From a virus (taxonomy: Duplodnaviria; Heunggongvirae; Uroviricota; Caudoviricetes), in IMG/VR virus record IMGVR_UViG_2826849342_000003: a stretch of 17,599 bases of DNA. One strand, written 5' to 3'. Below, piece after piece: positions 1 to 3,000 of this stretch; position 1 is the first letter of the stretch; each line of letters opens with the position of its first letter. The position numbers are program-made.

Positions 1-3000
1 CAGAATGGTGCGCTCAAACTGCCCGGTTTTTCCGCGTTAATGCGAAAATAGGTGGAAAGTTCCATCGGACAGCGCACGCCTTTAGGCACATAAATAAACG
101 TACCGTCAGAGGCTACCGCCGCATTAAGTGCGGCAAAGAAGTTGTCATTCCCCGGCACCACGGTGCCGAGATATTTACGCACCAGCTCCGGGTGATCGTG
201 GATCGCCTAAAGCGAGCAAAATCATTTGATACCGTTTTGAATTTTTTTTGATACCACCCAAAACGGCACAACGAAAAATTATTTGATACTAATCGGGAGT
301 GCTTTTAGGGTATGGCTGAACCTTGAATAGCTTAGTATTTAGCCGCTTCCTTGCTCGCTTGTTCAGGAACCTGATGTAGCGATACTGATTAAATTTGTGC
401 ACCACGGCACGCTCTTTATTAGCCCGTAAATACACGCCTCGTTGTCCACCTCGCTTCATCGCGTTCATCGTTATCTCGTGATACCACTCACCATCCAGCT
501 CGTAGAATGTGCTTTCATGGCTGCCAATAAAATCAAAATTTGACGCCTGATACACAACGCCAGCACGTCCGCAGCGTTCGTCTGCAAAAGACTGAACCCA
601 CTCCACTGACGGATACAGTAACCTTATGGTTTTCAGTGCATAACTGATGGCCCGTGATTCAGAGTTGCGGGGCATGTTGTCGTGTAGCCACATGCGGTTC
701 AACTCCATATAGCCCCGGTTATCCGTTTCAAGCACGACACGACGACCTGAGTTGGGGTTAAGGGCATATCCCCACTGGAGAACGCCAACCAGATCGCGTC
801 CGCTGAATACTCCCAGGTGGAGGTAAGAGTTATTCACAAAACGGCGGGAATAGTGCTTTGTCTGAATAATTGTGCGGGCCAGCCAGCAGGATATGGTTTC
901 AACGTGCAGCTCCTTTGAACCATAGCCAACAATCTGGCCTTCATACTCAATAACACACGGTTTCGTCAGAATGCGTGATTTTTTCTCTTTTCCCACAATG
1001 TTTCTCCGTGGGATGCTCGCAGGCATTCAGCATTATGATGTGACGTTTGCAACGCGGACACCTGATTTCAATGTGATCAAAGGAATCCGCCTTAAATAAC
1101 AGTTTGTTGCAGTTTTTACAGCGAATTGATTTCATCTCACCTCCTTTGCATCAATTCGCCACTATCTTAAAAAACATCGTGGGTTGAGTGTGGTTATTGG
1201 GGCATAATCGATCTATATTACCGATCGATTTGATTGATTCGATCGTCGTTTTCTATATGTGTTCGTTTGGCGGGGTGTTTTTTATACAGCGTTGACAGGG
1301 CCACATCGTAGATCAATGCGACCTGCTTGCGGGGGATTCCTTGTGCTAATAAACGCCCGGCCTGCTCCCATTCCGCTTTGGTTAGTTTAGGTGGTCGCCC
1401 ACCGATACGGCCTTTATTTCTGGCAGCAGCAAGTCCAGCCATCGTTCTCTCGATGATTAGTTCTCGTTCCATCTCAGCCAGGGCACCCATAACGTGGAAG
1501 AAAAAACGCCCCATTGGAGATGACGTATCAATACTGTCAGTAAGACTGCGAAAATTAATCCCTCGCTCTCGTAATTCCCCTACGAGAGAAATCAAATGTT
1601 TCATGCTTCGCCCGAGGCGATCCAGTTTCCAGACAACCAGTGTGTCACCTTTTTGAAGACGCTTTAAAGCGCGTTTTAATCCAGGTCTGTCTGTCCTTGT
1701 TCCGCTTAATTTATCTTCAAATATTTGTTCACATCCTGCACAAACAAGAGCGTTTCGTTGCAGGTCTGTATTCTGGTCATTTGTTGATACCCTTACATAG
1801 CCAATCAGCACTCTGGATCTCCCGTTTAAAAACGCAAATCATGCCATGCAGGCCGGAAACAGCCATTATCTAAAACCTCGGTTTACAGGAAACGGTAAAT
1901 CAGGCTTCTGGCGCATTACAGAAAAACCAGAACGGCGCAGATATTCCAGGAAAAGATACCTTCACCAAAAATATTGGTGCCTGTCGCGCATATAGCGCAT
2001 GGGTGGATATTGGTGGCGATAGTCAGGTCTGGACAACTGCGCAATTTATTTCGTGGCTGGAGAGTCAGGGGGCATTTAACCATCCTTACTGGATGTGCAA
2101 AGGCTCATGGGCTTATGCAAATAATAAGGTCATTACAGATACAGGTTGCGGAAATATTTGTCTTGCAGGTGCTGTTGTGGAAGTTACTGGCACTCGTGGC
2201 GCAATGACCATACGCGTTACCACGCCGGGCACGTCCAGCGGCGGCGGAATCACTAACGCTCAATTCACCTATATTAATCATGGTGATGCTTACGCTCCTG
2301 GCTGGCGACGAGACTACAACACGAAAAACCAGCAGCCTGCATTTGCTTTAGGGCAAACAGGAAGCAGGGTTGCAAATGATAAAGCTGTTGGCTGGAACTG
2401 GAATAGCGGTGTTTATGATGCAGATATCAAAGGCGCAACAGCATTAATCCTCCACTTCAATAAGAATACGGGGAGCTGTGAGGTGTACTGGCAATAGCGG
2501 ACACTACCATTTGTTCTTTTTTTAAGCAGCCATCTGATGATATTTTTCCCTGAAGGCTGCCGGGGAGATATTCCCCAGACGAGAGTGACGACGCTGACGA
2601 TTGTAGAAAATCTCAATGTATTCCCGTATTACTGAGATGGCTTCATCCCGGTTATTAAAACGATAGTGGCTCAGGCTCTCATTTTTCAGCGTTCCCCAGA
2701 AGCTTTCCATCGGAGCGTTGTCGTAACAGTTACCTTTACGCGACATTGATGTTTTCAGACCAAACTGCTCCTGTATGACCCGGTAATCGTATGCGCAGTA
2801 CTGTGAACCTCGATCAGAGTGGTGGATTAGCCCGGCAGGTGGGCGCTGGCTCCTTAGCGCCATAAACAGGGCTTTACCTGTCAGCTCTTTTGTCATGCAC
2901 TCTCCCATGGCGTAGCCGACAATTTCGCACGTATAAACATCTTTGATGCCAGCGAGGTACAACCATCCCTCCTGTGTGGCAACATACGTCAGGTCCGCCA

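Follow-up and report, generated by a model that had tools for sequence, protein, structure and literature searches.

The window, by which we mean the whole stretch of 17,599 nucleotides analysed here, is a segment of the Shigella dysenteriae chromosome, with 10,996 bases identical to CP024466.1. It starts inside sufB, formerly called ynhE, whose 3' part occupies positions 1-207 on the minus strand, and continues with a Mu-like remnant at 208-2478 that carries mom, com, a pinD/gin invertase and part of a tail-fibre gene. Position 2478 is the last to resemble Mu, D108 and E. coli prophages; an IS600 of full length (1264 bp; 2479-3742, minus strand) starts directly after it and truncates the remnant. 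Farther along, positions 3535-16101 resemble Stx-converting lambdoid phages at ~96-97% identity, and most of the window's length comes from a remnant of lambdoid, Stx-phage-like character that holds many IS elements and is unrelated to the Mu-like stump. The surroundings of the stump are dense in IS1 and IS600 copies and include one IS3-family element.

The stump preserves the right-end block of Mu, with S', gin, com and mom collinear and accompanied by a gix site; in both order and sequence this block follows Mu and D108, at ~96% DNA identity from 305 (Mu) or 275 (D108) to 2478. The mom gene is an intact ORF of 245 aa on the minus strand (289-1026; Pfam Mom, E=4e-75) whose product is 98% identical to Mu Mom, and com is an intact 62-aa ORF on the same strand (947-1135; Pfam Zn_ribbon_Com). 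An intact Gin-type serine DNA invertase of 197 aa, also on the minus strand (1218-1811; Pfam Resolvase and HTH_7), is collinear with gin of Mu and D108 and is taken to be the pinD of the literature. On the plus strand, a single gix-like crossover site at 1866-1891 departs from a gix consensus at one base, and the boundary of the Mu G segment maps to this site; the window has no second gix site that could act as its partner. The variable tail-fibre gene S' is represented by a plus-strand fragment (2003-2478) whose ORF continues to 2497, inside IS600. When positions 1-2600 were scanned for promoters and terminators, no promoter-like site was detected, and terminator-like sites were no more frequent than in shuffled sequence.

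The bases flanking IS600 are ctg and gtc, that is, there is no 3-bp duplication, which argues that the edge of IS600 is a recombination or deletion joint. The MuA-type DDE transposase and the MuB-type ATPase of intact relatives are absent from the window, the remnant ending at 2478. What the window holds is a remnant of a Mu-like element and not a functional member, and since it lacks a transposase, the stump is immobile. The original prediction had placed the end of a Mu-like element at this locus, and that end is real; it belongs, however, to a 2.27 kb right-end stump cut by IS600 at 2479 and not to a prophage. To judge from the title of a 1997 report on a defective Mu prophage of S. dysenteriae carrying pinD (Tominaga, Microbiology 143:2057-2063, pmid 9202481), the stump is already known: the organism is the same, and the title implies the same gene set, with a Gin-type invertase within a defective Mu prophage. 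Moreover, the exact Mom protein is on record as "phage Mu Mom-like protein [Shigella dysenteriae Sd197]" and under a pre-genome accession, BAA09846.1. Given that title and the shared protein accession, the 1997 prophage and the stump are very probably the same locus, for which the correct limits, 208-2478, can now be stated.

At its other edge the stump interrupts sufB. The start of the window falls within the gene, and the fragment begins at codon 172 of 495: in the minus-strand translation Ala172 occupies 204-206 and is next to an in-frame TAG (207-209), as anticipated by the prediction that the SufB reading would end at about 206/207 with a TAG next to it. All four features that the prediction pointed to lie where it put them or 1-2 bases away. 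In place of a full-length SufB ORF of ~495 aa, codons 172-495 alone adjoin sufC, directly preceded by a stop codon and interrupted by a -1 frameshift; sufB is here a pseudogene fragment, after which sufC, sufD, sufS and sufE come in Sd197. Alignment to reference sufB, which had been proposed as a check on 1-206, gave 98.6% identity to E. coli sufB over bases 1-208 (5,384 genomes), with the break at the tip of the element. In those genomes sufB is unbroken across the site, and the intact gene reads ...GGATCGCCT|CGCCAAAGG where the window reads ...GGATCGCCT|AAAGCGAGC. The boundary of the element is at 207/208: T208 is constant across six independent insertions while the base before it varies, so that the match of T208 to sufB is a coincidence. 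The sufB/phage junction is identical in 12 S. dysenteriae assemblies and was carried by none of the E. coli genomes in the same complete-genome search.

The right terminus of the element spans 208-288 on the plus strand and forms the 3' flank of mom, which, as predicted, directly follows sufB. Read inward, the tip is TAAAGCGAGCAAAATCA...; its relatives read TAAAGCGCGC, from which it differs by a single substitution, an A at 215. A different flank precedes the tip TAAAGCG(C/A)GCAAAATCATTTGATACC in the window and in each of five E. coli prophages, so that sufB, mscM, ppsR, glpT, ydcO and an SDR oxidoreductase gene share it from the first base; the same tip is also found in the Yersinia phage vB_YpM_5. 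The junction is what had been proposed for it, a transposable-phage insertion into sufB, bounded by the exact tip of an element that also interrupts five E. coli genes.

Three copies of TTTGATAC stand in this terminus on the plus strand, at 225-232, 247-254 and 282-289, beginning 18, 40 and 75 nt from the tip, the third overlapping the mom stop codon by one base. These are the only copies in the 17.6 kb of the window, all within 225-289 and in this orientation, against a chance expectation of 0.53 per window. An intact relative of 37.2 kb (L007) contains eight copies, six of them near the tips (18, 122 and 164 nt from the left tip; 18, 40 and 75 nt from the right) and in mirrored orientation; the left-end copy of intact relatives, 18 nt from the tip, stands at the same distance as the first copy of the window. 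Thus, by position, the right end of the window and the ends of its relatives show several repeats near each tip, inverted between the ends. The three spaced motifs that the original prediction saw in the terminal ~80 bp are these copies, and its suggestion that they could bind transposase suits positions that are mirrored at both ends in the relatives. The repeats are most likely candidate sites, R1 to R3, for the phage's own transposase.

In its three repeated sites near the tip, the terminus recalls the R1-R3 sites of Mu, and the first 7 nt of the tip, TAAAGCG, compare with TGAAGCG in Mu R1. The differences are nevertheless extensive: the terminal 97 bp of the element cannot be aligned with Mu, its tip dinucleotide is TA and not TG, TTTGATAC takes the place of the MuA-site consensus, and the transposase of the stump's relatives is just ~28% identical to MuA. 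An inexact match to the Mu R-end had been remarked on before, and megablast similarity indeed begins only at 305 for Mu and 275 for D108. The 5'-TG...CA-3' termini, MuA-consensus sites and 5-bp duplication that mark Mu proper are lacking. Judged by its sequence, the element is not Mu proper; it comes from a Mu-like lineage whose transposase is very different.

Its closest counterparts came from the proposed comparison of 207-290 with the ends of Mu-like phages. The published Yersinia Mu-like phages vB_YpM_5, vB_YpM_6 and Tongde (Microbiol Spectr 2023; PMC10434027) match from 208, with 97-98% DNA identity to the window up to the tip, and the E. coli prophages share with vB_YpM_5 the left-tip type, the right tip and, at 99% identity, the transposase. 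These likenesses indicate that the S. dysenteriae stump derives from the vB_YpM/Tongde/E. coli prophage lineage. The Yersinia phages are complete and viable and the E. coli prophages complete, whereas the window keeps 2.27 kb, with the substitution at 215.

The E. coli relatives are complete Mu-type prophages of 36-37 kb, carrying repressor, ner, transposase, MuB, gam, mor, head and tail genes, G segment, gin, com and mom. Their transposase has the Pfam domains Mu-transpos_C and HTH_Tnp_Mu_1, and their MuB the domain Phage-MuB_C; the transposase of the lineage is 697 aa long, its tips are TA...TA, and its left-tip sequence is TATAGAGAGGTAAAT(T/C)ATTTGATAC. All four intact relatives with matching flanks (in mscM, ppsR, glpT and ydcO) show a 4-bp duplication, confirmed for two of the four against empty sites over 300 of 300 bases. 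The target duplication of Mu is 5 bp. A 5-bp duplication had been expected here as well, and a test for it would mislead; because the relatives duplicate 4 bp, the expected target duplication in sufB is CGCC. The CGCC at 204-207, beside the single flank at hand in the window, is therefore predicted, by analogy with the intact relatives, to be one copy of it, the second half of sufB not having been located. Our literature search found no description of a 4-bp duplication in Mu-like phages. A term search of the vB_YpM Yersinia-phage paper (PMC10434027) turned up none of attL, attR, termini, target site and duplication, and one of a Mannheimia-phage paper yielded neither termini nor duplication.

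Protein, contig-pattern and fusion-ORF searches did not locate the displaced 5' part of sufB that the original prediction had suggested looking for. A protein search with SufB residues 1-172 returned 77 matches, none ending at 171 with phage read-through, and an exact-pattern scan of genome contigs with 22 nt of sufB at the breakpoint gave nine loci, none of them in S. dysenteriae, which apparently has no separate representative genome in that collection. Six guessed fusion ORFs, combining three sufB alleles with two left-end variants, were absent from the protein collection. Cluster listings include a 96-aa "SufB, partial [Shigella dysenteriae]" (P0079).

The suf genes carry further lesions. 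At 27-31 a run of T5 (A5 on the coding strand) replaces the T6 (A6) of intact sufB and produces a -1 frameshift past codon 238. The frame here had been described as one A/T short; E. coli sufB does not share the window's sequence at this run, and the second lesion is real. T5 is present in 12 of 12 S. dysenteriae assemblies examined, Sd197 among them, and a gap-free match to bases 1-64 is found in 0 of 5,418 E. coli complete genomes. Outside the window, codon 38 of sufS is changed from CAG to the nonsense codon TAG in all 11 assemblies that reach that position. Synonymous and nonsynonymous changes in the suf genes number 54:15 on the S. dysenteriae branch versus 47:11 on an E. coli branch (Fisher p=0.83); as these ratios do not differ, they give no general sign of relaxed constraint in the suf genes.

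We regard it as highly probable that the locus reflects a Mu-like insertion into sufB, an IS600-associated loss that left the stump, and later point lesions. A Mu-like transposable phage would have lysogenised a bacterium ancestral to the sequenced S. dysenteriae strains, its transposase joining the phage ends to a staggered cut in sufB between codons 171 and 172. This insertion would have split the suf operon, leaving sufA-sufB' with the promoter on one side and 'sufB-sufCDSE on the other, and placed the right phage tip (window 208) directly against sufB codon 172. If the insertion was simple, it would also have left ...CCTCTCTATA-CGCC-TCGCCAAAGG... (window orientation), the left tip lying beside the 5' part of sufB with a repeat of CGCC. 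Recombination or deletion associated with IS600 may later have taken all but the right-most 2.27 kb, so that the stump retained mom, com, pinD/gin, one gix site and part of S'. One base would then have been lost from the A6 run of sufB (27-31), probably by replication slippage, and the CAG-to-TAG change at sufS codon 38 would also have been acquired. It is plausible that the frameshift followed the insertion and is, as originally suggested, secondary decay.

Neither the 5' part of sufB nor the left phage end nor a second copy of the duplication turned up, and the insertion was therefore probably, rather than demonstrably, a simple one. The alternative is a transposase-mediated rearrangement, in which the joint would stem from intramolecular replicative transposition or from recombination of two prophage copies, with the 5' part of sufB far away or deleted. 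Such rearrangements do occur in the lineage, as the mismatched flanks of one E. coli relative (L010) indicate, where an SDR oxidoreductase gene lies to the right and ycjP to the left, and the failure to find an ORF in which SufB(1-171) reads through into a left end is in line with this scenario. However, four of the five relatives are inserted simply, between matching flanks, and the IS600 joint at 2479 explains the missing left part equally well. We therefore consider a rearrangement improbable, and since the 207/208 joint would be transposase-made in both cases, it would alter the history of the feature rather than its nature. There is next to no chance that the boundary is instead the attachment site of a lambdoid prophage, integrated site-specifically into sufB. 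The resemblance of 3535-16101 to Stx-converting lambdoid phages speaks for this idea, but the DNA that adjoins sufB, 208-2478, is Mu-like and set apart from the lambdoid part by IS600, and the ORFs between sufB and IS600 (Mom, Com, serine invertase and tail-fibre fragment) contain no integrase domain. Moreover, the same end adjoins five unrelated E. coli genes. With Mu-like DNA from 208 onward and the same arm at six different loci, we rejected a lambdoid attachment site.

As for the frameshift, homopolymers are the commonest place for indel errors and the assembly of strain 1617 has many broken genes, yet T5 is shared by 12 assemblies from different projects and occurs in none of the 5,418 E. 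coli genomes. Sd197, which is among the 12, was sequenced by Sanger chemistry. The agreement of these assemblies led us to reject a sequencing or assembly error, which we hold to be very improbable. The order of the two sufB lesions leaves more latitude. The frameshift may have inactivated sufB first, with the phage later entering a dead gene and the insertion being the secondary event: both lesions are in all 12 assemblies, the data give no ordering, and no datum counts against this sequence of events. As Mu-type insertion is near-random, no preference for a dead gene would be necessary. We consider this order rather unlikely, and prefer an insertion into sufB that was followed by point lesions.

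The loss of sufB is ordinary Shigella gene decay, in that a dispensable housekeeping operon took a mobile element first and small mutations afterwards, and the outcome became fixed in a clonal pathogen; it differs in that the first hit would here be a transposable phage and not an IS. Beyond correct annotation, the result carries little weight. Our literature search found no mention of suf or sufB loss in S. dysenteriae. With three fixed lesions in its suf operon, namely the phage insertion, the frameshift and the sufS nonsense codon, this lineage should depend on Isc to assemble its Fe-S clusters when faced with iron limitation and oxidative stress, a physiological consequence that can be tested. 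More tentatively, and with some doubt on our part, the stump's lineage might combine Mu late genes with a distinct transposition module (a transposase ~28% identical to MuA, TA tips, TTTGATAC repeats and a 4-bp duplication), of which we came across no description, and S. dysenteriae might be a natural Suf-null lineage of Escherichia relying on Isc alone. If the module is indeed undescribed, it would represent a naturally occurring form of the Mu transpososome whose strand-transfer stagger is one base shorter. The TA tips and 4-bp duplication of the parent phage lineage provide a natural case for comparing how the geometry of a transpososome fixes its stagger, which may interest researchers working on DDE transposases.

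Translated on the minus strand, window 1-207 corresponds to the 495-residue E. coli SufB from residue 172 onward, with a TAG directly upstream of the first alanine. Positions 1-208 have sufB matches of up to 98.6% identity across 5,384 complete genomes of E. coli. In the alignment to E. coli, the intact gene continues after the shared GGATCGCCT with CGCCAAAGGAAC, whereas the window continues with AAAGCGAGCAAAATC, a junction present in none of the E. coli complete genomes searched. Beyond it, window 208-2478 is collinear with Mu-type phages at their right end and carries mom (289-1026, minus strand), com (947-1135), a serine invertase gene of the Gin type (1218-1811), a gix-like site (1866-1891), and the distal portion of S', the variable tail-fibre gene (2003-2478). 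The gix-like crossover site is single and lies beside an intact invertase gene; its partner is absent from the window, and the invertase of the phage stump is left without a local segment to invert.

These features bear out the original prediction that sufB is cut at the end of a Mu-like element, as does a tip common to five E. coli prophages of the same lineage (L006-L010). In the junctions extracted from these prophages, the base before TAAAGCGCGCAAAATCATTTGATACC is a, g, t, c, and c, and in the window it is c. Since the preceding base varies, the T belongs to the element, and the window boundary falls at 207/208; the BLAST match of sufB runs to 208 because the T at this position equals the next sufB base too. 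The TAG next to the sufB frame was correctly recognized, and the original position of 206/207 lies one base from this boundary. The junction was certainly made by a transposase, either by simple insertion or in a rearrangement mediated by transposition; the left phage end is not in the window, and neither it, the 5' half of sufB, nor the second copy of the predicted target duplication (CGCC) turned up in the protein and genome-contig searches.

The stump is 96% identical to Mu from position 305 on and to D108 from 275 on, with terminal stretches of 97 bp and 67 bp, respectively, that cannot be aligned, in agreement with the original remark that the terminal region does not match the Mu R-end exactly. 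By comparison, the Yersinia phages vB_YpM_5, vB_YpM_6, and Tongde, together with a set of E. coli prophages, keep 97-98% identity to the window all the way to base 208. Among the E. coli elements, four are complete prophages of 36.1-37.2 kb (L006, 4138-41060; L007, 2866-40070; L008, 3183-40371; L009, 4280-40362), which contain genes for a repressor, a transposase, and a MuB-like ATPase, a ner-like gene, gam, mor/C, genes for lysis, head, and tail, gin, com, and mom, and an invertible G segment. They interrupt mscM, ppsR, glpT, and ydcO. The scattered targets form the pattern expected of a transposable phage rather than a site-specific one. The fifth element (L010) has its left end in ycjP (region 37820-41001) and an SDR gene on its right; these flanks do not match, which points to a phage-associated rearrangement.

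The original prediction also expected a 5-bp target duplication. Instead, all four simple insertions among the relatives are flanked by 4-bp duplications (TAAG, CGCG, AGCC, and GTGA), and each of them, if read as 5 bp, mismatches at its first position. Reconstructed empty sites holding a single 4-bp copy align with intact ppsR and glpT over 300 of 300 bases and with no gaps. On this basis, the duplicated target predicted for the window would be CGCC (204-207) and not a pentamer. The tips of the lineage, TATAGAGAGGTAAAT(T/C)ATTTGATAC on the left and, read inward, TAAAGCGCGCAAAATCATTTGATAC on the right, form imperfect inverted repeats beginning TA, and a TTTGATAC motif lies 18 nt away from each of them. 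The Yersinia phage vB_YpM_5 (L014, ~4560-4800) has the same type of left tip and the same right tip. In contrast, Mu has TG...CA tips and makes a 5-bp duplication, and the 697-aa transposase of the stump lineage, which carries Pfam Mu-transpos_C and HTH_Tnp_Mu_1 domains, shows only ~28% identity to MuA across the core. Its identity is 99% with the vB_YpM_5 transposase, 43% with that of Mannheimia phage 3927AP2, and ~31% with those of D3112-like Pseudomonas phages. The kind of element was correctly anticipated, with the corrections that only a stump is left, that its end is not Mu-type, and that the lineage duplicates 4 bp.

The three spaced motifs noticed in the terminal region correspond to three copies of TTTGATAC, all within 225-289 and on the plus strand, against a chance expectation of 0.53 for the whole window, which contains no further copies. 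The 37.2 kb prophage L007 contains eight, six of which lie near the tips (at most 171 bp from the left and 82 bp from the right) and point in opposite directions on the left and right, the same layout as the L1-L3 and R1-R3 sites of Mu. Judged from their position, the original suggestion of candidate transposase-binding sites is the best available reading of these repeats.

The suspected frameshift near 27-31 was borne out as well. Window 25-33 reads GGTTTTTCC and its E. coli counterpart GGTTTTTTCC, which on the coding strand changes GAA AAA ACC GGG CAG (E K T G Q) to GAA AAA CCG GGC AGT (E K P G S). Among 5,418 E. coli genomes, not one gives a gap-free match to window 1-64, the best matches pairing 64 query bases with 65 record bases at 98.5%, and all 12 S. 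dysenteriae assemblies compared reproduce the window exactly at 1-64 and 150-300. The frameshift is therefore a fixed mutation, and assembly error is ruled out as its source. Compared with its best match in E. coli, 1-207 carries two base substitutions, both synonymous as read from the alignment. Past the fragment, the Sd197 chromosome keeps the E. coli gene order (sufC, sufD, sufS, sufE, ldtE, and lpp). In sufS, which lies outside the window (Sd197, L004, 13793-15013), codon 38 is TAG in place of CAG in 11 of 11 S. dysenteriae assemblies reaching this codon, namely Sd197, strain 1617, and L024-L032. The S. dysenteriae suf operon thus has three disabling lesions, namely the phage insertion, the sufB frameshift, and the sufS nonsense codon. 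Branch-wise counts with Escherichia sp. as outgroup gave 54 synonymous and 15 nonsynonymous substitutions on the S. dysenteriae branch versus 47 and 11 on an E. coli branch, showing no general signal of relaxed constraint in suf and no order among the three lesions.

All Mu-like relatives cease to match at 2478, where a complete IS600 of 1264 bp (2479-3742) begins. The bases on either side of it, ctg and gtc, do not form a 3-bp duplication, and the joint therefore arose from recombination or deletion and not by simple IS insertion. Beyond it lies an unrelated, IS-riddled lambdoid remnant (3743-16300), ~96-97% identical to Stx-converting phages, with a DEAD-box helicase fragment (7361-8023), a cI-like repressor (10008-10721), an Eco57I-type methyltransferase (10761-12284) overlapping a 317-aa ORF (12281-13234) whose counterpart in E. 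coli matches is annotated as a BsuBI/PstI-type endonuclease gene, and a rha-like ORF (14128-14544). Matches that exceed the Rfam gathering score place STnc100 (4167-4372, minus strand), isrK (13851-13926, plus strand), and C4 antisense RNA (13951-14038, plus strand) inside the remnant, and none of its ORFs of at least 95 aa is an stx gene. The lambdoid side also holds further IS1 elements, an IS3-family element, and an inverted second IS600 (6108-7363), whose final 8 bp were replaced by an IS1 (5337-6117). At the window end, beside an IS1-like element, is a fragment of ycjM (glucosylglycerate phosphorylase; 16997-17599, minus strand); it belongs to the same gene cluster as the ycjP interrupted in L010, a coincidence. 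In one draft S. dysenteriae assembly (L031, PUGP01000559.1, ~2300-8500), mutS-ygbA and a TOBE-domain gene occur past the IS600 joint, with no lambdoid remnant there, which would be the result of another rearrangement through IS600 or of a chimeric assembly.

The exact 245-aa Mom protein (289-1026, minus strand) is found only in the S. dysenteriae chromosomes CP000034.1 (Sd197) and CP006736.1 (strain 1617), and a version with a GTG start occurs in at least 24 other contigs of this species. CP024466.1 is identical to the window at 10,996 of 10,996 comparable bases, and Sd197 differs by a few substitutions. An IS1 at ~8786-9550 is present in the window and in CP024466.1 and missing from the same site in Sd197, which shows that IS1 is still active within the lineage. 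A second accession of the exact Mom protein, BAA09846.1, is older than the genome projects. A defective Mu prophage of S. dysenteriae carrying the invertase gene pinD was published by Tominaga in 1997, very probably from this locus. As a finding, the decay of sufB is ordinary for Shigella. In the literature searched, we found no paper on suf loss in S. dysenteriae or on 4-bp duplications made by Mu-like phages, nor a description of a transposition module combining TA...TA tips, TTTGATAC sites, a 697-aa transposase ~28% identical to MuA, and a 4-bp duplication. This module of the parent lineage is the sole part of the finding that may be worth more work.
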